Origin: Chloroflexota bacterium
GTDB lineage: Bacteria > Chloroflexota > Dormibacteria > Dormibacterales > Dormibacteraceae
DNA: 64,000 nucleotides
Direction of reading: 5' to 3'
NCBI GenBank assembly: GCA_005880795.1
Contig: VBGP01000022.1
Location: 17,347-81,346 of the forward strand
Positions 21,370-33,861 of this stretch are shown here, one piece after another (the stretch's first letter is position 1; the number at the start of each line of letters is the position of its first letter). The position numbers were made by a program, and so were the translations under genes. Below the pieces are notes generated by a model that worked only from the letters and a program-made list of their open reading frames with translations, ran no database searches and was not told the origin of the DNA.

Positions 21370-21965
21370 GTGAGCGCCTCAGCCGCGACGAGCGTTGCGA
21401 GCTTCGGCGCGATCTCGTCCAACGGCAGGATGAAGTCAACCGCGCCTGTTTTGATCGCCGCGGACGGCATTCCAAAAAATTCCGAAGTGGCTTCGTCCTG
21501 AGCCAGAACGGTGCCGCCTCGCTGCTTGATCGCGGTCACGCCCAGCGCTCCATCGTGGCCGCTACCGGTCAGTACGACCGCGATCGCACGTGGCCCGTAC
21601 GCGGCTGCCACGGATTCGAACATCAGGTCGGCGGAGGGTCTCACGAAGTTGACCAGCTCAGTGTCGGTGAGAGTTAGTGTGCCGCGTTTGACGAGGAGGT
21701 GGCGGTCGGGCGGTGCGAGGTAGATGTGGCCCCTCTCCAGCTGCGCTCCCTCTTCCGCATGGACCACCGGCAGCCGTGCATGGCGTCCGATCACCTGCGG
21801 CATCAGGCTTCGGTGGCGCGGATCGACGTGCTGCACGATGACGACGATCGCGCCGAGGGTTGCGGGTAGATGGCGGAGGACCTCGGTAAGGGCGCTGACG
21901 CCGCCGGCTGAGGCCGCGATGGCGATGATCTCGAAGGAGGTCGGCGATCCGCGAAACGGCTTCAG
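21366..21965 (-). CDS. CheB-type methylesterase catalytic domain protein (no receiver domain); start codon unresolved
   Basis: Contains IIAIAASAGGVSALTEVLRHLP...VVIVQHVDPRH...VVLTGSGHDG. The conserved N-terminal roughly 40 aa lie upstream of the first ATG (21836). No ATG, GTG or TTG exists in frame back to the stop at 22020-22022. The 5' end shown here is a CTG at 21965. Confidence 0.7.
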   Translation of the reverse strand: MKPFRGSPTSFEIIAIAASAGGVSALTEVLRHLPATLGAIVVIVQHVDPRHRSLMPQVIGRHARLPVVHAEEGAQLERGHIYLAPPDRHLLVKRGTLTLTDTELVNFVRPSADLMFESVAAAYGPRAIAVVLTGSGHDGALGVTAIKQRGGTVLAQDEATSEFFGMPSAAIKTGAVDFILPLDEIAPKLATLVAAEALT

Positions 21966-22348
21966 TCGGGGCCGCGGCTCCGGCCGCCCTTCATCTCGGC
22001 CGCCCGGATCTTCCAGAAATCACGCCGCAGCTCGAAACGCGAGGCCTGCGTCTCCAGAAGGACCACGTCGGTCTCGCGTATCGCTCGGGCCACCTCCGGC
22101 TCGGCGCGCTCGGCGTACTGGTGGGATAAATCGATCAGCTGGTGCTTGAAACGGATCAGCTCGTCGTACGTGGCGATCCAGCGGTGAGCCTGGTCCAGGG
22201 TGGCCGTAGCCGGGTTCTCCCCCTGGAGACGGTAGCCTGGATCGCCGAGTCGCTGGAGGAAGGCCGTCGTCATCTCACGCCGTTGCATTGTGCATTTTTC
22301 TTCCCATATCCCCATAACCGGATCGTCCAGATTTGTACCTGTCATCAT
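21962..22348 (-). CDS. Hypothetical helical protein of the local paralog family (copy A)
   Basis: Contains GENPATATLDQAHRWIATYDELIRFKHQL...ASRFELRRDFW, clearly similar to the ORF at 26214. The start is uncertain (M at 22348, 22315 or 22288). Confidence 0.6.
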   Translation of the reverse strand: MMTGTNLDDPVMGIWEEKCTMQRREMTTAFLQRLGDPGYRLQGENPATATLDQAHRWIATYDELIRFKHQLIDLSHQYAERAEPEVARAIRETDVVLLETQASRFELRRDFWKIRAAEMKGGRSRGPD

Positions 22349-24671: not shown

Positions 24672-24845
24672 TTCACCTCCCCGCCCGCCGGGGAGGTCGG
24701 CCGCCGTGCGGCCGGGTGGGGAGTTGCGATTCACCTCCCCGCCCGCCGGGGAGGTCGGCCGCCGTCCGGCCGGGTGGGGGGTTGCGATTCACCTCCCCGC
24801 CCGCCGGGGAGGTCGGCCGGCGTCCGGCCGGGTGGGGGGTTGCGA
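24672..24845. repeat. Three tandem copies of a 58-bp GC-rich unit, each able to form two hairpins
   Basis: Units start at 24672, 24730 and 24788 (TTCACCTCCCCGCCCGCCGGGGAGGTCGGCCGCCGTNCGGCCGGGTGGGGNGTTGCGA). Stem 1 is CCTCCCCG/CGGGGAGG and stem 2 is CGGCCG/CGGCCG. Most differences between copies fall in the loop of stem 2. Confidence 0.9.
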
Positions 24846-24880
24846 GTCCCCTTGCCCGCATCATCAGAAGGTGCGAACAT

Positions 24881-26182
24881 TTGCTCGTTGTGAGCCAACC
24901 GTCGCCTGAAGCCATCGGGCTTGGCTTGAACACGGCCGACCCCACCACCCTCGTCATCGACCTCAACTGCGCCTTCGCCTCGATCGAGCAGCAGCAGGAC
25001 GCGGCACTTCGCGGCCGCCCGGTCGCGATCGCCGCCTACGCCACCGACGCCGCAACCATCGTCTCGTCGTCGCGCGAAGCGCGAGACCTCGGCATCAAGA
25101 CCGGCATGCGCGTTTTCGAGGCCAAAGCCATCTTCCCGGCCGTCATCGTCCGCGAGCCCGACCCGCCCCTCTACCGCTCCGTCTCGGACAAGCTCATGGA
25201 GATCATCGAGCGACACACGCCCGATGTGCGTCGAATGTCCATCGACGAGGCCTCGCTCAACCTGGCCGGCACGCCGGACTTGAAAAGGCTCGGCCCCGAA
25301 GGCGTTGGGCGCGTGGTCAAAGCGGCGATTCGTGAGGAGATCGGAGAGTGCGTGACCGCGTCGGTGGGCGTCTCGACCTCGATCTGGATGGCCAAGCAGG
25401 CGTCGAACGTGGACAAGCGCGACGGCCTGCAGCGGATCGACCACACCAACCTGGTATCGGTCTTCGAGCGGCTGCAGCTCACCGACCTGTCGGGGATCGC
25501 CGAGGCCACCGCGAGCCGGCTTGCCCGCGCCGGCATCCTCTCGCCCGTTCAGTTCCTGCGGGCGACCCCGCCGCGACTGCGCCTGGCCGGCATGCACTCC
25601 GAGGTCGCGCGCGGGTGGAGCATGCGCCTCCGCGGGTTCGAGGTCGGCGGTTTCGAGACCACCAAACGGAAGAGCTACAGCCATTCGCACGTGCTCGCTC
25701 GCGCCACCGCTTCGCAGGGCGAGCTGGAAGAGCTCCTGATGCGCCTGTCGGACATGGTCGGCCGGCGGCTGCGGGCCGCCGCGAGGCGGGGCCGCGTGGT
25801 CTCGGTGGGCGTCGTCTACCGGCCGGACGCGGGCCACTTCTCCAAGCAGGCGAAGCAGCCCAAACCGATCTCGACCGGGGACGAGATATACCTGGCGGCC
25901 CTGACGCTGCTCGCTGCTCGTGACCCCCGGCGGACCATCGGCACGCTCGGAGTGGGCCTCTCCGACCTGGTCGACGGCGCCGGGGGCCAGCTCGACCTTT
26001 TCGCCCAGGCTGTGCTCCCCCGAAAGGAGCGGCTCGAGGCGGCGGTCGACGCGCTGCGGGATCGGTTTGGCGAAGACGCCGTCCAGCGCTCGCGGCTCCT
26101 CGGCCGCGCTCCAGTGGTGCGCGACCGCATCGCGTTTGGTAATACCGGACATCCTGATGAGTCGAGGCCGAATAAGTCGTGA
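24881..26182 (+). CDS. dinB: Y-family DNA polymerase (DinB/Pol IV-like)
   Basis: Contains VIDLNCAFASIEQQQDAALRGRPVAIA and MSIDEASLNL (catalytic acidic motifs). TTG at 24881 lies 9 nt after AGAAGG. The track ORF start at 24716 lies inside the tandem repeat. Confidence 0.85.
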   Translation: MLVVSQPSPEAIGLGLNTADPTTLVIDLNCAFASIEQQQDAALRGRPVAIAAYATDAATIVSSSREARDLGIKTGMRVFEAKAIFPAVIVREPDPPLYRSVSDKLMEIIERHTPDVRRMSIDEASLNLAGTPDLKRLGPEGVGRVVKAAIREEIGECVTASVGVSTSIWMAKQASNVDKRDGLQRIDHTNLVSVFERLQLTDLSGIAEATASRLARAGILSPVQFLRATPPRLRLAGMHSEVARGWSMRLRGFEVGGFETTKRKSYSHSHVLARATASQGELEELLMRLSDMVGRRLRAAARRGRVVSVGVVYRPDAGHFSKQAKQPKPISTGDEIYLAALTLLAARDPRRTIGTLGVGLSDLVDGAGGQLDLFAQAVLPRKERLEAAVDALRDRFGEDAVQRSRLLGRAPVVRDRIAFGNTGHPDESRPNKS

Positions 26183-26213: not shown

Positions 26214-26525
26214 ATGGCCTCCAGGAAAGAGGAGGCCGCCGGAGCGGCCTGGGAGGGCGCCGACCTCGATCGACCGATTCTCGGAGAGAACCCCGAATCG
26301 GAGTCGCTGGAGGACGCCCGCCGCTGGGTGACCGTCTACAGCTACTTGGTCAAGCTCGAGGAAGAGCTGCTCGACATGCTCGCCGGCGCCATCCCGCAGA
26401 TGCCGGACGCGGCCCAGCGGGAAGCTGAGCAGACCAACCTGCCGGTGTTGGCCTCGCAGGTCGAGCGCTTCCGGCACCGGCGGGACTACTGGGCCCACCG
26501 CCGGACCGAGCTGGAGGGGCGCTAG
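26214..26525 (+). CDS. Hypothetical helical protein of the local paralog family (copy B)
   Basis: Contains GENPESESLEDARRWVTVYSYLVKLEEEL...QVERFRHRRDYW. Lies 31 nt downstream of dinB. Its 3' end overlaps the 3' end of the convergent hybrid kinase by 4 nt. Confidence 0.6.
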   Translation: MASRKEEAAGAAWEGADLDRPILGENPESESLEDARRWVTVYSYLVKLEEELLDMLAGAIPQMPDAAQREAEQTNLPVLASQVERFRHRRDYWAHRRTELEGR

Positions 26526-28684
26526 CCGGCTGCTCGCGCCCCGGGGGTGGTCTTGAGGACGATCCCCCTGAGCCACTCGATGAGCTCAGCGCCCGCGACT
26601 GAGTTGCGCTGGAAGATCGCTGCGACGTTGCCGTTCAGGGAACGTTTGTCATCAGCTGTGAGCGTTTTGGCGGTGAGGACCATGATCGGGATGGTTCGCG
26701 TCCGATCTTCGGCCCGGAGCTGCTCCACGACCTCAAAGCCGCTGACCCCTGGCATCATCAGGTCGAGGAGGATGAGATTTGGCAGGCGCGACTTTGCCAT
26801 GTCGATTCCTTCCTGTCCGCCGTTCGCCCGCAGCACGCTGAAGCCGGCGGGCTTGAGCAAGCCTTCGATCAGGTCGAGGTTTGACTGCTCGTCGTCGACC
26901 ACCAGCACCCGGACCTCTTCGCGCTTCACCTTCGTAGTGAACGTGAACTGCTCGAGGCGTGACAGCAAGCCCCTTCCATCGATTGGCTTGACGAAGTAGT
27001 CGATCGCACCAAGCGCCCGGCCGAGCGCCGGATTGTCGACCACCGAGACCACGACCACCGGGATGTTGCGCGTGGACTCGTCCTGCTTGAGCCGCGTCAG
27101 CACCTCCCAACCATCGATCTCGGGCAGGAGTATGTCCAGCGTCACGGCGACCGGCTTTAGCTCTCTGGCCATCCTCAGCGCGTCAGTGCCGTTGCGTGCG
27201 ATTTCCATTCGGAACCCACCCACCTCGAGATGCCGGCCAAGGATCTCGGCCGCCTGCGGGTTGTCCTCGACCACGAGGACGAGCGGACGGCCCGCCTCGA
27301 CCTGTCGGGCTTTTTCGGGCTTGCGAGCCGGCCATTCTTGGGGGGCCACGCTGTGCGCCGGCAATCGGACCGTGAAGGTCGTCCCCTTCCCAACCTGGCT
27401 TTCGACGCTGACGTCGCCACCGTGCAGAACGGCAAGGCGCTTCGTCAACGCCAGGCCGAGACCGGTGCCTTCCTGTCGGCGCCCCGGCCCGGGGTCGAGC
27501 TGTTGAAACTCACCGAAAAGACGAGGGAGATCCGCTTCCGCGATCCCGATCCCTGTGTCGATCACCGCTATTTCCACCGAGCTCGCCGTCCGGCGCGCGC
27601 GGATGGACACGTGGCCGCCGGCCGGCGTGAATTTGATGGCGTTCGAGGCGAGGTTCAGCAGCATCTGCCTCACCTTTGCGCCATCTGCGACAAGCTGCAT
27701 GCTGGGATCCGACTCGCTGTCGAAGGTGATCCCCTTGGCTCGTGCCAGCGGCTCCATGGTGGCTAAAACCTCACGCACGGTGTCGGCCACCAACATAAGT
27801 TGCGGATGAAGCTCCATCTGCCCCGCCTCGACCTTCGAGAGGTCAAGGATGTCATTGATGAGCTGCAGCAGGTGCTTGCCGCTGCTGTGAATCTGGTCGA
27901 GAAAACGGCGACGAGTCACGGGGTCAAAACGTTCTGACCCTTCGTCGCTGAGAAGCTCCGAAAACCCGATGATCGCGTTCAGCGGCGTTCGTAGCTCGTG
28001 GCTCATGCTCGCCAGGAAGCGGCTTTTCGCGCGGTTGGCTCGCTCGGCCTCGGCCTGCGCGTCGCTCAGCTGCTTTGTTCGCTCCTCCACCATGGCTTCC
28101 AGCTCGCTGGCGAGCAGCCTCTGATTGCGCAGTAGCTGCGCGGTGGCGATCGCGCGCGCGGCGCGTTCCGCCAGGCTGACCAAAAGGTCGAGGTCAGCCT
28201 GGTTGAAGGGCGTGCTTCCCTCCATCCGGTTGAGGTTCAGCCCACCCACGACGGTGTCCTGGGCGATCATCGGGATCAAAGCCGATTGACGCATCCGCCA
28301 CTTCTCGATGTGGCGTCTCTGGTGCGGCGCAAGGTCGGGCCGCAGGTGATCCGGATCGATTTCGATCACAACCGGTCGCCGCTCCTGGATAACGGATTTC
28401 CAGACCCCGGACGCGTCGATGTCCATCCGGACACCCAGCATGTGACGCGCGTCTTCCATGACGTTGGGGTCGGGATGATAGGCGGCCACGGGCTCGACGC
28501 TCCGGCCATCAGCCGAGAGGAGGACGACGGCGCAGAAGTCACCGGTCGCGCGGGAGATCTGCTCGGCGACGATTGCCAGGAGGGCTTCGATGTCCGGGAC
28601 GGCGTCGCTGAACGCGCCGGTCGCCTCGGCGATTGCGGCGAGGCGGCCGGCATGACCGCCGCCCAGGGCAGGGAGGTCAGACAT
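26522..28684 (-). CDS. Hybrid sensor histidine kinase (GAF - HisKA - HATPase_c - REC - REC)
   Basis: Contains SHELRTPLNAIIGFSELL, GTGLGLALTKRL and two receiver domains (LVLVVEDNPQ...TLDILLPEIDG and VLVVDDEQSN...LLDLMMPGVSG). Confidence 0.92.
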   Translation of the reverse strand: MSDLPALGGGHAGRLAAIAEATGAFSDAVPDIEALLAIVAEQISRATGDFCAVVLLSADGRSVEPVAAYHPDPNVMEDARHMLGVRMDIDASGVWKSVIQERRPVVIEIDPDHLRPDLAPHQRRHIEKWRMRQSALIPMIAQDTVVGGLNLNRMEGSTPFNQADLDLLVSLAERAARAIATAQLLRNQRLLASELEAMVEERTKQLSDAQAEAERANRAKSRFLASMSHELRTPLNAIIGFSELLSDEGSERFDPVTRRRFLDQIHSSGKHLLQLINDILDLSKVEAGQMELHPQLMLVADTVREVLATMEPLARAKGITFDSESDPSMQLVADGAKVRQMLLNLASNAIKFTPAGGHVSIRARRTASSVEIAVIDTGIGIAEADLPRLFGEFQQLDPGPGRRQEGTGLGLALTKRLAVLHGGDVSVESQVGKGTTFTVRLPAHSVAPQEWPARKPEKARQVEAGRPLVLVVEDNPQAAEILGRHLEVGGFRMEIARNGTDALRMARELKPVAVTLDILLPEIDGWEVLTRLKQDESTRNIPVVVVSVVDNPALGRALGAIDYFVKPIDGRGLLSRLEQFTFTTKVKREEVRVLVVDDEQSNLDLIEGLLKPAGFSVLRANGGQEGIDMAKSRLPNLILLDLMMPGVSGFEVVEQLRAEDRTRTIPIMVLTAKTLTADDKRSLNGNVAAIFQRNSVAGAELIEWLRGIVLKTTPGARAAG

Positions 28685-28723
28685 GCCGCAACTCTAGGCG
28701 ACTAAACGGCCGAAATCGATTGC

Positions 28724-30160
28724 TTAACGAGCGCCCCGCCGGTGCCTGGCTGGAGCTCCTAAGGCCTCCACAGCCGCCACGGCCGCGAGATCGTCGATTG
28801 CGGCCATGAAAGCAAGGCTGCCGTGGTTCCCCCCAGAGCTGGCGTGGGCGATCTCGTGCAGTACCACGCGGGCGAAATGTCGCGGCGAATCGAGCACGGA
28901 CCGTTTGACCACGATGTTCGGCGAGTCCCAAACCCCTTCGGTCTCGTATGCGCCCTCGTCAAGTCGCATCGTGGCCGAGATGCGCACCTCCTTGACGCGC
29001 TTCGCGTGCGCGCCGGCGAGCCGGATCAGCTCGGGCAAGATCGCCCATGCGATCCGTTCCGTCTTGTTCAGCTTTGCCAGATCGACGAAGTTGTAGGTGA
29101 ACGAGGCATTCCAGACCTGGACGAAGCCGGAGATGTCGAGGATTGGACGGCCTTCGAGGTCGCGCAGCTTGGAAAGCCGTCCCAGCAATCGGTCGGGCAC
29201 CACGATGACCTTGTAGCCGTCGGCCCTCGCCTCTTGAATCGTCGAGCCCATCGTGAACATCTGCTGTGAGCTGACGAAGACTGTCTTGCCTCTCGTGGCG
29301 AGGATCCTGACGGCCTGCTCCTGCACGTCGAGCCAGGTGATCTCGTCGTGGTTGGTGCCGAGCGGGATCCGTGTGAGGTCCTGCACCAGCTGCTCCGCGA
29401 CGGCCTCGGATTTGGCCTTCAGGAGGATCGCCTTGACTCGGTCCTGGTAGGCGCTCCGCCCCACGTTGCTGCGTTCACGGTTGAGCGCTCGCTGGAGCTG
29501 CGTGGTGGTCGATGTGACGTTGTAGGAGAACAGGAACTGATCCTCGAGCGCGACACGGACGCCCTTCACATAGATGCGCGCAGGCTGGTCAGGACGGCGT
29601 TCGAGGATGCTGCCGAGCTCCGTCCGCTCGAGCTCCTTGTCGCCCGCAAAGCGCAAGAAGTAATCCCGCGCGGCAGCCATGTCGGCGTCGGACAGGCCGC
29701 CCAGTGTGAAGTCGGTGCCGCGCCGCTTCGGTTCGGAAGCCGGCGTGATCGCCGCGTGAAGCGTCTTGACATCGGCGAAGTTGGTCTTCGCGGCTTGCTG
29801 CAACCTGATGTCGCCATGCGGACTGCGGATGCGCACCTCAACGCCGCGACGGTGAAATGTCGCCAGCGCGTCCTTGAGGCCGACGCCGAACTTGCCGACC
29901 ACGAGGTCGGAGCGACGCCTCTTCTCGGGATTCTCGTTCTGGGTGAGGTGCTGGTAGTGCAGGCCGCGCCCGAAATCTGTGATGTGCCATCCGTCGCGGC
30001 GCTTCACGATCTGCGGCTCGGCGCTGCCGCTCAGCGCCTGCTCATCGAGCGCGTTCGCGATCACCTCGCGTACGGCCTCAGGCACGCCCCAGTGGTCGAG
30101 GATCTTTTCGACGTTGAGGTCGAAAAGAGAAACCTGGCCCTTTGTTACTCGGCGAGCCAC
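28724..30160 (-). CDS. GHKL (HATPase_c_3/MutL-Hsp90-MORC type) ATPase fused to a C-terminal HExxH zincin-like domain
   Basis: Bergerat motifs are EAVREVIANALDE (ExxxNAxD), ITDFGRGL (DxGxG) and GKFGVGLKDA (GxxGxG). The C-terminus has VVLHEIAHASSGGNHGSLAF, resembling the HExxH...NH..F signature of SprT/YgjP(DUF45)-type metallopeptidases. GTG at 30158-30160 overlaps the upstream gene by 16 nt. The track extension to 30370 is not supported. Confidence 0.75.
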   Translation of the reverse strand: MARRVTKGQVSLFDLNVEKILDHWGVPEAVREVIANALDEQALSGSAEPQIVKRRDGWHITDFGRGLHYQHLTQNENPEKRRRSDLVVGKFGVGLKDALATFHRRGVEVRIRSPHGDIRLQQAAKTNFADVKTLHAAITPASEPKRRGTDFTLGGLSDADMAAARDYFLRFAGDKELERTELGSILERRPDQPARIYVKGVRVALEDQFLFSYNVTSTTTQLQRALNRERSNVGRSAYQDRVKAILLKAKSEAVAEQLVQDLTRIPLGTNHDEITWLDVQEQAVRILATRGKTVFVSSQQMFTMGSTIQEARADGYKVIVVPDRLLGRLSKLRDLEGRPILDISGFVQVWNASFTYNFVDLAKLNKTERIAWAILPELIRLAGAHAKRVKEVRISATMRLDEGAYETEGVWDSPNIVVKRSVLDSPRHFARVVLHEIAHASSGGNHGSLAFMAAIDDLAAVAAVEALGAPARHRRGAR

Positions 30161-30552
30161 TCCCTCGCCTCTTCGACCGAGGCGAAGTACGCGATCTGCA
30201 TCGCCGTTTGCGGCACCTTGTCGAGACGCTCGCGAAGATGACCCGCCGCGATCTCGCTTTCGGGCAGCACAATCGCGAACCGCTTCAGGCCCGCCTCGAG
30301 CACCCGTGGGACCCACTCGCGGTTCGCCCGCTCCTGGTCTGCCGGGTTCAGGATCCGCTGGCGGCGACAATCGGCCAGGAGGCGCGAGCAGGCACGCTCC
30401 CCGAGCGCCTTGACCTCGGCGTCGAGAAGAGCGCCGAATTCAGCGCTGTTGGCCCATCCGTCCCACTCCACGAAGACAGTCGAGTGGGGACCGTCCCACC
30501 TGACTGTTGCGACACCCGGGACCGAGAAGTAGACGTCGTCATCCTCGCCCAT
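30145..30552 (-). CDS. STAS/SEC14 (SpoIIAA-like, DUF3478-type) domain protein
   Basis: 135 aa. Pattern VRWDG...FVEWDGW...LLADCR...RFAIVLPES...IAYFASVEEAREWL matches the SpoIIAA-like family, ending with the typical A..WL. Confidence 0.6.
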   Translation of the reverse strand: MGEDDDVYFSVPGVATVRWDGPHSTVFVEWDGWANSAEFGALLDAEVKALGERACSRLLADCRRQRILNPADQERANREWVPRVLEAGLKRFAIVLPESEIAAGHLRERLDKVPQTAMQIAYFASVEEAREWLAE

Positions 30553-30614: not shown

Positions 30615-31001
30615 TCAGGTCCGGCAGGCCCAGGCGTCGACTTCCACGCGGTACTCCGGAGCCGCCAGTGCAGCGACATAGACCAGCGTGGAGCAGGGAG
30701 CGTGGCCTTTCAGCCACGCTGAAGTGACCTCTCTGCGGCGGCGAACGTCGATCTCACCGACCAGGTACCAGGTCACCTTGACGAGGTCGGTGACCGCCAT
30801 CCCGGCGGCGTCGAGGTTTCGCCTCACGTTCTCGAGGGCGAGCTCGACCTGCTCGATCGGGTCGTCGGGCACGACCCCGTCCTGCGTGCGCCCCAACTGC
30901 CCCGCCATGACCAGCCACCGCGGAGAGCCCTGAACCTCGACCTGGTGGCTGTACGGCCCGACCGGTGGATGGATCGTTTCGGGATTGCGCCTTTCGTTCA
31001 C
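30615..31001 (-). CDS. RidA/YjgF family protein
   Basis: Contains PVGPYSHQV...LVMAGQLG...VKVTWYLV. 4-nt overlap with the upstream MFS gene. Confidence 0.85.
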   Translation of the reverse strand: MNERRNPETIHPPVGPYSHQVEVQGSPRWLVMAGQLGRTQDGVVPDDPIEQVELALENVRRNLDAAGMAVTDLVKVTWYLVGEIDVRRRREVTSAWLKGHAPCSTLVYVAALAAPEYRVEVDAWACRT

Positions 31002-32514: not shown

Positions 32515-32961
32515 ATGGCGACCGGGACGGTCATCTTGAATTGCGCTCGGATGCAGGATCCCAGCGTGGCGGCGATCGAATACCTGGCCCGGCTCAAGCT
32601 TGGCCTTCGGCGAGGCGGCCGGGAACTGTGCCTGGCGAGCCCCAGCCCAGAGCTGGCGGAGCTGATCGACCTGGCCGGCTTGGCCGGGGTACTGGGGTGC
32701 GACCGAAAACCCTCGGCGAGAGATTCGGCGATCCAGGTGGCCCAGATTCGGGTGAAGCGCCGAGCAGCGGAACGAGCGCATCCGTCGATGCGTGAGCGAG
32801 CAGCGCAGAAGCTGAACCCGAAGATGGGCCGCATGGGCGCCGAAGATCCGCCGAGGGGCTTTCGGGCGCGCCCCCTACTCGAGGTGAAGAGGCAGCCCGA
32901 ACAGCGGGAAGAGCCTTGCCGTGTCGAGGAAGAAGGTGAACTCGCCGATCCGCCCCTCTGA
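32515..32961 (+). CDS. Hypothetical protein with a partial STAS (anti-sigma antagonist-like) segment
   Basis: The first roughly 60 aa (VILNCARMQDPSVAAIEYLARLKLGLRRGGRELCLASPSPELAELIDLAGLAGVL) look like the C-terminal half of a STAS domain. No N-terminal half is possible because a stop lies at 32506-32508. The tail is low-complexity and overlaps the convergent sigma gene. Confidence 0.3.
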   Translation: MATGTVILNCARMQDPSVAAIEYLARLKLGLRRGGRELCLASPSPELAELIDLAGLAGVLGCDRKPSARDSAIQVAQIRVKRRAAERAHPSMRERAAQKLNPKMGRMGAEDPPRGFRARPLLEVKRQPEQREEPCRVEEEGELADPPL

Positions 32962-33861
32962 GATCTCCAGCACCTGGAGCGCCCAGGGGTCGTGGCCTCC
33001 GTTCGGGCTGGGCTTGTACTGGCCGAAGGTGGGCATCCCGTTCGCGCTGAGCGTGGGAATCACGCGCGAGCCTTTGCAGCCGATACCTGGGCCAAACCAC
33101 CACGCCAGCACGTCGTCGCGTCCGCTCAGCCACATGTCGTAAGGCGGCATGGACTGCGTGGCGTCTTCGCGGATCAATGAGGTGAGCGCGTTGACGTCGT
33201 AGCGCTCGAAGGCGGAAACGTAGCGTTCGAGCATCGCCCGGTCGGCTGCGCTCAGCGCCTCCTCGCGCTGCTCCGAACCTGCGTTGATGTTCGCCTTCCC
33301 CATGGTCACGCGGGCGCGCTGAAGGGCGCTGTTGACCGACGCGACGGAGGTGTCGAGCAGCTCCGCCACCTCGGTGGCCTGCCAGTCGAGCACCTCGCGG
33401 AGGATGAGCACGGCACGCTGCCGCGAGGGCAGGTGCTGGAGCGCCGCCACGAAGGCGAGGCGGATCGACTCGTTGGCGATTGCCACCTCCGCGGGGTCGC
33501 GCTCCGGCGCGATGAGGTGGAGCGGAATCGGTTCCAGCCAGGTGATCTCGGCGGGCACATTGAGGTTCGCCTCGATCGGTTCGACTGCAGGTCCAAGGTC
33601 CATCGGCCTGGCCCGCCGCTCCTTGCCTTTGAGCATGTCGAGGCACACGTTGGTGGCGATCCGGTACAGCCACGAGCGCATCGCGGAGCGTCCTTCAAAA
33701 CGGTCCCGGCTGCGCCACGCCCGGACGAACGCGTCCTGCACCGCATCTTCGGCGTCGAACGGCGATCCGAGCATCCGGTAGCAGTAAGCGGTCAGCTCGC
33801 CCCGGTACTGTTCGAGCTCGCCGAAGGCGTGCGGAGTCGAGGCGGTCGCGGTCTGCATCAA
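32875..33861 (-). CDS. ECF sigma factor with fused C-terminal SnoaL/NTF2-like domain (TIGR02960/SigG-like)
   Basis: Contains DAEDAVQDAFVRAWR (region 2) and AVLILREVLDWQATEVAELLDTSVASVNSALQRAR (region 4), followed by a roughly 130-aa NTF2-like extension. Confidence 0.88.
   Translation of the reverse strand: MMQTATASTPHAFGELEQYRGELTAYCYRMLGSPFDAEDAVQDAFVRAWRSRDRFEGRSAMRSWLYRIATNVCLDMLKGKERRARPMDLGPAVEPIEANLNVPAEITWLEPIPLHLIAPERDPAEVAIANESIRLAFVAALQHLPSRQRAVLILREVLDWQATEVAELLDTSVASVNSALQRARVTMGKANINAGSEQREEALSAADRAMLERYVSAFERYDVNALTSLIREDATQSMPPYDMWLSGRDDVLAWWFGPGIGCKGSRVIPTLSANGMPTFGQYKPSPNGGHDPWALQVLEISEGRIGEFTFFLDTARLFPLFGLPLHLE

Follow-up and report, generated by a model that had tools for sequence, protein, structure and literature searches.

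What does a bacterial protein do that joins a Bergerat-fold (GHKL) ATPase to a putative metallopeptidase, and do the genes packed closely around it work with it as one system? The question is raised by a 64,000-nucleotide (nt) stretch of a Chloroflexota genome of the family Dormibacteraceae (contig VBGP01000022.1, positions 17,347 to 81,346 of the forward strand), referred to here in its whole length as the window. One part of its minus strand holds three open reading frames (ORFs) of 135, 478 and 720 amino acids (aa), which encode a STAS-like protein, the GHKL-zincin fusion and a hybrid histidine kinase. An earlier note, made from the sequence alone, had read the three as a possible partner-switching/proteolytic module. 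Our analysis points elsewhere. The 478-aa protein is probably a stand-alone, ATP-regulated metalloprotease, an ATP-gated clamp joined to a zincin, whose mobile forms would most likely serve in conflict or defence and whose Dormibacterota copy is chromosomal. The STAS-like gene and the kinase are later, dispensable insertions beside it and not parts of a conserved system.

A GHL-class ATPase joined to a predicted zincin

The 478-aa protein, the core of the finding, and its parts lie in the window as follows.

28724-30160, minus strand: ORF of the 478-aa GHKL-zincin protein, assigned to PF25856 'MPN635_N' via its homologs.
29516-30160, minus strand: N-terminal Bergerat-fold ATPase domain, aa 1-215, with E32xxxN36AxD39, D62xGxG, G89xxGxG and T149.
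29096-29515, minus strand: middle region, aa 216-355, mostly helical and then alpha/beta, with the near-invariant motif N227-R228-E229-R230.
28751-29095, minus strand: predicted C-terminal minimal zincin domain, aa 356-470, SprT/Wss1/selecase-like.
28823-28858, minus strand: putative metal-site motif H435-E436-I-A-H439-x6-H446, HEIAHASSGGNH, its translation checked.

The ORF begins with a GTG at 30160, the sole in-frame start near the onset of homology. Scans of this one protein against Pfam, NCBIfam and PADLOC stayed below threshold (HATPase_c_3, E = 0.015; SprT-like, 0.13; sacsin Hsp90-like ATP-binding domain, 2.6e-3), so that scans at the level of the family were needed; a phmmer search of the PDB with the same query returned only a spurious cytochrome match. 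The family alignment used here, A1, contains 74 sequences with identities reaching down to 28%. Residues E32, N36, D39, E40, D62, K80, G89, T149, F168, G200, R228, H435, E436 and H439 are invariant in it. All three Bergerat motifs picked out in the earlier note are present and conserved, and so are not a product of chance. Motif I reads EVIANALD (E32-V-I-A-N36-A-L-D39, at 30044-30067), with E32, N36 and D39 invariant; motifs II and III read DFGRG (aa 62-66) and GKFGVG (aa 89-94), with D62 and G89 invariant and with G64, G66, G92 and G94 conserved in at least 90% of the sequences.

The class of the ATPase domain is clear: it is of the Hsp90/MutL/MORC (GHL) kind and not a SpoIIAB-type kinase, as the note had also proposed. 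Among the 74 members, 66 match the Pfam profile HATPase_c_3 (best E = 7e-8), whereas only 3 match HATPase_c_2, the SpoIIAB-type profile (best E = 0.029). Searching the PDB with the family profile finds the N-domains of Grp94, GyrB and TRAP1 at E ~1e-3. The same class is found with an AlphaFold2 model built on A1 (pLDDT 93, pTM 0.84), the best Foldseek matches of which are full-length Hsp90s (Hsc82 at E = 7.6e-10, TRAP1, and Hsp90 in client complexes), followed by the N+M part of Grp94, Topo IV (3.8e-4), the ATPase-plus-transducer part of Topo II, and MORC4 (3.6e-3). Foldseek alignments with the N+M(+C) domains of Hsp90 and with the ATPase-plus-transducer region of Topo II/IV run over more than 600 columns; TM-scores to these structures are low (~0.3), so the relative arrangement of the domains differs. 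Among the phage families of PHROGs, phrog_6077, which has no assigned function, matches aa 21-323 (E = 2.3e-23).

We propose that the middle region is an Hsp90 M-domain-like or transducer-like module that would complete the ATP site, and that the invariant R228 of its NRER motif is a candidate gamma-phosphate sensor. Two features are shared with the Hsp90/GHL proteins (HtpG, Grp94, TRAP1, MutL, GyrB/ParE, MORC), namely the Bergerat site (E-x3-N-A-x-D, DxGxG, GxxGxG, GT) and a second domain with an invariant basic residue after the ATPase domain. However, identity to these proteins is only 10-13%, and the 478-aa protein is much shorter. It has neither the dimerisation domain of Hsp90, nor the endonuclease/dimerisation domain of MutL, nor a Toprim domain, and it ends instead in the putative metalloprotease domain.

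That C-terminal part is, on profiles and models, well supported as a SprT/Wss1-like minimal zincin, short of structural proof. Its HExxH motif (H435, E436, H439), invariant in A1, falls within a predicted helix of the model (426-442) and is kept in 70 of 84 family representatives. When a profile of only the last ~115 residues (A3) was searched against PDB sequences at E < 10, it matched 13 of them, and all 13 are small zincins. The top match, aligned over nearly the whole domain, is Wss1p (5xbn, E = 7.5e-4); projannalysin, selecase, Spartan, IrrE, proabylysin, NleC and a WLM protease are among the others. In Pfam, 31 of the 74 members match SprT-like (best E = 3.6e-4), and other family members match DUF6782, MPTase-PolyVal, M76, M78 or M48; no zincin model, SprT-like included, reaches its gathering score in the 74 members scanned. 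A separate model of aa 286-478 (pLDDT 92.5) was compared by Foldseek with BFVD, a set of predicted viral structures. Three family homologs came first and SprT-like phage proteins next (probability 0.89-0.97, TMt 0.48-0.60, rmsd 3.5 A over 101 columns, E only 0.065-0.11), and a WLM protein and a polyvalent-protein peptidase were also returned. The zincin-like HExxH terminus that the note had described is borne out by the invariance of its motif, by the profile match to Wss1 and by these likenesses to phage SprT-like proteins.

The putative metal site differs between the wider family and the clade of close relatives in Dormibacterota. The family consensus is HExxH-A-x-[ST]-G-x-x-D-x-[TS]-R-x-F-E, and the 120 close relatives all read HE[IVMF]AHASSxx[NS]HG..FM. 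At position 446, 11 residues past the first His, all 120 proteins of the clade have His, and 72 of 84 family sequences have Asp. This remodelling comprises D446H (+11), R449L/I (+14) and E452M (+17, a Glu conserved in the wider family), and it is fixed in the clade. In the A3 alignment the +11 position coincides with the His at +11 of selecase, which we take to be the third zinc ligand of that enzyme. A coordinated swap of a carboxylate for an imidazole at a putative ligand argues that the site would bind metal. SprT/Wss1/Spartan (WLM), selecase, projannalysin and proabylysin resemble the predicted domain in their small beta-sheet, HExxH helix and following helix, and the SprT/Wss1 and minimal zincins share with it a further potential metal ligand 11 residues past the first His. 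In contrast to SprT, Wss1 and Spartan, the predicted zincin here is fused to an ATPase and not to DNA- or ubiquitin-binding modules, and a further difference from SprT/Wss1 and the minimal zincins lies at the putative third-ligand position, where most family members have Asp and the clade has His.

Size, spread and genomic contexts of the PF25856 family

A word-indexed search found more than 4,650 homologs, and an exhaustive search of 50%-identity representatives gave 1,451 clusters at that identity, 293 of them with E < 1e-30. Most cluster representatives are 450-490 aa long, with alignments that span the full protein at 28-48% identity. The family is already present in databases: a precomputed match to PF25856.2 is carried by proteins 99% identical to the query (the query itself being unscored) and by 120 of 120 listed homologs, so the combination is not unrecognised at that level. 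The Pfam name, MPN635_N, derives from an uncharacterised Mycoplasma pneumoniae protein, and the NCBI pipeline labels members "ATP-binding protein". In the literature searched, no description of this joining of a GHKL ATPase to a SprT-like zincin was found. The earlier remark that the combination is not a described system holds for that literature and has to be amended for the databases, where the family exists, though uncharacterised. Its spread over bacteria and archaea is patchy. Some members carry added C-terminal TPR, Sel1, LRR or FGE-sulfatase domains, and the TPR, Sel1 and LRR extensions are sensor-like.

Gene contexts outside the Dormibacterota clade were sampled, and read without enrichment statistics, from about a dozen inspected loci and from 10 loci in IMG/VR. 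For instance, on the Salinibacter ruber plasmid pSR56 (locus L062, 4943-13198) the gene forms part of a Type I restriction-modification (R-M) operon of the order hsdM-hsdS-[GHKL-zincin]-hsdR. One family member adjoins BREX genes and an Mrr nuclease, and another context places the gene directly after a block of SNF2 helicase, Metallophos and SMC-like genes. In the same sample the gene stands beside a UvrD-helicase/AAA_15 pair and beside DUF2397, DUF2398 and SbcC_Walker_B genes; on our reading of their Pfam content, the former resembles Gabija and the latter Wadjet. Genes for DUF4145, GmrSD, Eco57I and an OLD-family nuclease lie beside a member in an organism with genetic code 4 and 28% GC. A TPR-fused member is found within an integrase/DUF927 island, another among transposases and an MTase-HNH gene, and a copy on a conjugative Croceicoccus plasmid lies near IS110 and SbcCD-like genes. 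Full-length homologs with 39-47% identity are plasmid-borne in Alphaproteobacteria, Actinomycetota, Bacillus/Priestia, Salinibacter and three haloarchaea. The gene is also present on 17 IMG/VR contigs, and its neighbours in the 10 loci scanned there include Xre-type HTH regulators, integrases, recombinases, XamI, GmrSD, RadC and UmuDC.

Contexts of this kind are typical of a conflict or defence gene that spreads horizontally. Because most members travel on plasmids, prophages, integrative islands or defence islands, the ancestral role was most likely genetic conflict or defence, with the ATPase as sensor and the attached protease as effector. The note had called a defence role conceivable, and the R-M, BREX, GmrSD, Mrr and mobile-element settings of the wider family fit that suggestion. 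Two known kinds of conflict gene offer a comparison. The Salinibacter homolog, placed between hsdS and hsdR, recalls the PrrC-type genes embedded in Type I R-M systems, and the phage T4 protein rIIA is likewise a GHKL conflict protein with an N-terminal ATPase and an effector-like C-terminus; family member P0311 has a weak PHROG match to rIIA. Unlike these, the present family has no sequence relationship to the PrrC anticodon nuclease, its effector would be a zincin and not a nuclease, and its putative defence role is read from the genes, with no PADLOC model for it.

Some details of these loci can be recorded alongside. In the pSR56 operon a separate gene annotated as 'SprT family zinc-dependent metalloprotease' follows hsdR, and the operon with its GHKL-zincin gene accordingly has two different SprT-like protease genes. 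Three contigs (L036, L037 and L038) combine a GC content of 28% with genetic code 4; the homolog at L036 8001-9371 contains three in-frame TGA codons read as Trp, and its table-4 translation is identical to the database protein, which indicates a Mollicutes-like organism. In all three a DUF4145 gene precedes the GHKL-zincin gene and a 270-aa ORF follows it. DUF4145, a 246-aa ORF and an M50B-like gene were considered as general partners and set aside, each recurring in one closely related set of loci only.

Alternatively, the protein could be a chaperone-protease for quality control, in which an Hsp90-like clamp would hand misfolded or specific clients to the zincin, as an AAA+ analogue on a GHKL engine. 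Its strongest structural likeness is indeed to full-length Hsp90 chaperones, there is the weak match to the sacsin Hsp90-like domain, and Dormibacterota keep the gene stably on the chromosome and strongly conserved. We nevertheless consider this improbable, since outside Dormibacterota the gene is patchy and rides on mobile elements or in defence islands, unlike a housekeeping quality-control gene, and since the C-terminal dimerisation domain and co-chaperone motifs of Hsp90 were not detected.

The STAS-like gene, the hybrid kinase and the Dormibacterota slot

Around the 478-aa gene, the window holds the following neighbours.

30145-30552, minus strand: ORF of the 135-aa STAS-like protein (PF11964, SpoIIAA-like), with a TAA stop at 30145-30147.
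26522-28684, minus strand: ORF of the 720-aa hybrid histidine kinase, with the Pfam domains GAF-HisKA-HATPase_c-REC-REC.
30615-31001, minus strand: RidA/L-PSP family protein (PF01042, E = 3.4e-21), the usual left neighbour.
24716-26182, plus strand: DinB/UmuC-type Y-family DNA polymerase (IMS and IMS_C domains), convergent with the GHKL gene and forming the conserved right flank.

The start of the GHKL-zincin ORF overlaps the end of the STAS-like ORF by 16 nt, and the ATG of the kinase lies 39 nt beyond the stop of the 478-aa ORF. The three ORFs and their spacing are as the earlier note described them, and its domain order for the kinase was reproduced by the Pfam scan. What does not hold is their union into a module. 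The comparison drew on 34 loci with close relatives of the protein (72-93% identity) from GTDB species representatives, most of whose records are named Dormibacterota or 'Chloroflexi CF_' soil metagenome-assembled genomes, with a few other bin names; the upstream side is visible in 29. The STAS-like gene is directly upstream in 15 of these 29 and missing from 14. For example, RidA abuts the GHKL gene in L013, L014 and L022, two BNR-like genes take the place of the STAS-like gene in L003 and L004, and L018-L021, L023, L025 and L029 show other contexts in which no STAS-like gene stands upstream. Conversely, the slot in L066 has a STAS-like gene and no GHKL gene. In the 28 loci that encode family members outside the Dormibacterota clade, the STAS-like gene was never found. 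The pair is therefore not conserved across genomes. Only L001 and L027, which are the two closest relatives, have the kinase after the GHKL gene, and on this synteny it is rejected as a component of a system.

Two of these loci have features of their own. The BNR-like genes (L003 3044-5430; L004 3567-5990) are tandem paralogs of ~384-408 aa with an N-terminal membrane anchor and, by eye, BNR/Ycf48-like repeats. A frameshift near residue 124 breaks the GHKL-zincin gene of L063 (5423-6756) into called genes of 130 and 309 aa, with the STAS-like gene upstream of it intact; the break reflects either a pseudogene or an error of assembly.

The STAS-like family is small, with about 450 detectable members. 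The window protein and 27 homologs were aligned, and each of these 28 sequences matches the whole PF11964 profile, the best at E = 1.1e-6; the window protein itself does so at E = 1.3e-3, short of the Pfam cut-off. On these profile matches the protein is a genuine PF11964 member and not a canonical STAS domain. Its family profile found no match among PDB sequences. At the place where SpoIIAA would carry its phosphorylation site, an inspection of the motif layout by eye found no conserved Ser or Thr; the stretch is an invariant LLADCRRQRxLNxxDQ. In a neighbour-joining tree of the GHKL proteins, the basal branches are without STAS, and loci with and without it are mixed in the crown, which suggests that the STAS-like gene was gained late and lost repeatedly.

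The idea of partner switching, in which the GHKL-zincin would bind the STAS-like protein, phosphorylate it or cleave it and the kinase would provide the input or output, has an understandable appeal. The STAS-like gene overlaps or abuts the GHKL gene wherever both occur, no minus-strand terminator-like site lies between the RidA, STAS, GHKL and kinase genes, and classical partner switching couples a STAS protein with a GHKL protein; in SpoIIAA/SpoIIAB and RsbV/RsbW, too, a STAS-superfamily gene is followed by an overlapping GHKL-fold gene. However, in those systems the GHKL protein is of the HATPase_c_2 type and the STAS protein has a phospho-acceptor Ser, neither of which is seen here. A PP2C phosphatase is not part of the conserved locus, and the nearby ECF sigma gene is parted from the pair by the major facilitator superfamily (MFS) and RidA genes. 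The non-kinase class of the GHKL domain, the lack of a phospho-site Ser or Thr and the patchy, apparently late-gained STAS-like gene together remove the basis for partner switching, and with the kinase adjacent in two loci only we give such a module very little chance. A lineage-specific regulatory contact between the overlapping STAS-like and GHKL proteins is conceivable.

The usual order of the locus is ECF sigma, MFS transporter, RidA, the STAS-like gene where present, and GHKL-zincin, with a small ORF and DinB on the opposite strand; DinB is syntenic in most Dormibacterota loci. In L007, for instance, identity to the window is 83% for the GHKL protein, 80% for sigma, 81% for MFS, 81% for DinB, 70% for RidA and 67% for STAS, and the GHKL gene is in general conserved as well as or better than the flanking core genes. 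In the same tree the Dormibacterota clade is monophyletic and tight, on a long stem. Between MFS and DinB the slot is plastic: RidA, RibD_C, pyridoxamine-oxidase-like, BNR, STAS, kinase and GHKL genes come and go. Within Dormibacterota the GHKL-zincin gene has passed down by vertical descent and is better conserved than any of its neighbours, and the copy looks like a domesticated, conserved chromosomal derivative.

In two loci that are without the usual synteny, a protein with an MGMT DNA-binding domain (PF01035) is encoded directly upstream of the GHKL-zincin gene and on the same strand (L019 5715-5981; L029 4216-4623). It has PWHRV instead of the active-site PCHRV, a change typical of alkyltransferase-like (ATL) proteins. 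Together with DinB, such neighbours raise the prospect that in Dormibacterota the protein is a DNA-damage factor, a MutL/GyrB-like clamp that would bring its SprT/Wss1-type protease to bear on DNA-protein crosslinks or on stalled complexes and work alongside DinB and ATL proteins. Among solved proteins, the protease domain has its best relative in Wss1, which cleaves DNA-protein crosslinks; Spartan is matched as well, and SprT-like is the commonest zincin match of the family in Pfam. DinB is a conserved convergent neighbour, most GHL ATPases act on DNA, and some mobile homologs have SbcCD-like or UmuDC genes close by. On the other side, the closest structural neighbours of the whole protein are Hsp90 chaperones and not DNA enzymes, no DNA-binding domain was identified in the 478 residues, and the net charge of the domains is unremarkable. 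DinB is convergent, with another gene between, so that the linkage may be plain synteny, and the alkyltransferase-like neighbour occurs in two related loci only. On this circumstantial evidence a crosslink role in the Dormibacterota clade is a serious rival, though on balance an unlikely one.

Other small genes of the slot deserve a brief description. The ECF-type sigma gene (window 32875-33861, minus strand), which forms the conserved left flank, encodes Sigma70_r2 and r4_2 followed by a C-terminal SnoaL_2 domain, the architecture of ECF sigmas controlled by their own C-terminal extension. On the strand opposite the sigma and MFS genes, a small conserved ORF (window 32515-32961, plus strand) matches only the C-terminal half of canonical STAS (PF01740, E = 4e-6, profile positions 42-96 of 106) and runs convergently into the 3' end of the sigma gene with an overlap of 87 nt. 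Its counterparts lie at L005 3539-3805, L013 3205-3471, L014 3307-3561 and L022 918-1136, and the window copy has an in-frame insertion of ~60 aa relative to the 72-88-aa versions of the other loci. Finally, a family of small proteins of ~100-130 aa shares the motif GENP...RW..Y..L......L and has no match in a Pfam scan. A copy is invariably found between the GHKL gene and DinB, its ORF overlapping the 3' end of dinB in a different frame (window 26214-26525, plus strand), and a second paralog stands 4 kb away within the window (21962-22348, minus strand); further paralogs are found at L003 9882-10124, L006 10099-10335 and L022 6325-6567.

Proposed mechanism and significance

For the stand-alone, ATP-regulated metalloprotease that we favour, a mechanism can be outlined from the architecture: an Hsp90/MutL-class N domain, a middle domain with an invariant Arg, and a C-terminal zincin with HExxH-x6-[D/H]. 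From these conserved parts we infer both ATPase and protease activity. By analogy with other GHL clamps, ATP binding would close or dimerise the N domains, and the resulting conformational cycle would gate access to the protease or activate it. What is new here is a fusion variant of two known themes, the GHKL-effector fusions and the NTPase-controlled defence proteases, within a family already catalogued and uncharacterised.

Several points weigh against this reading and must be set beside it. When the model of aa 286-478 was compared with the PDB by Foldseek, no significant zincin was found, the search returning Rossmann/CheY-like noise from the alpha/beta subdomain, and the zincin call therefore depends on sequence profiles and the BFVD matches. 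The HExxH motif is missing in 14 of the 84 representatives (about one in six, some of them fragments), so proteolysis may not be family-wide. The ATPase and protease functions are predictions from sequences and models. In PADLOC-DB v2.0.0 neither the 478-aa nor the 135-aa protein matches any family at E up to 1, and the conflict-context signature comes from a small sample and is not a statistical enrichment. The gene in Dormibacterota, moreover, behaves as a conserved chromosomal gene and not as a patchy defence gene, and its role there may accordingly differ from that of its mobile relatives.

A bolder and more doubtful extension can be offered tentatively. PF25856 may represent a new class of ATP-gated protease built on a GHKL clamp instead of an AAA+ ring, and a widespread single-gene immune or conflict effector. 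In Dormibacterota one copy, its putative metal site altered from carboxylate to imidazole, would then have been domesticated for a chromosomal role, which might be the processing of DNA-bound proteins next to the DinB and ATL genes.

For the locus itself the result is a corrective one, in that the STAS-GHKL-kinase arrangement came about locally, by chance, in a plastic slot and is not a signalling module. If the ATP-gated protease reading is true, GHKL ATPases would join the AAA+ and STAND NTPases as engines that control proteases, and a testable function would be available for ~1,450 clusters (at 50% identity) now labelled merely "ATP-binding protein". The Type I R-M, BREX and Gabija- or Wadjet-like settings make the gene a concrete candidate for a new single-gene defence system, and the Dormibacterota copy would provide a natural example of such a gene turned conserved chromosomal resident.

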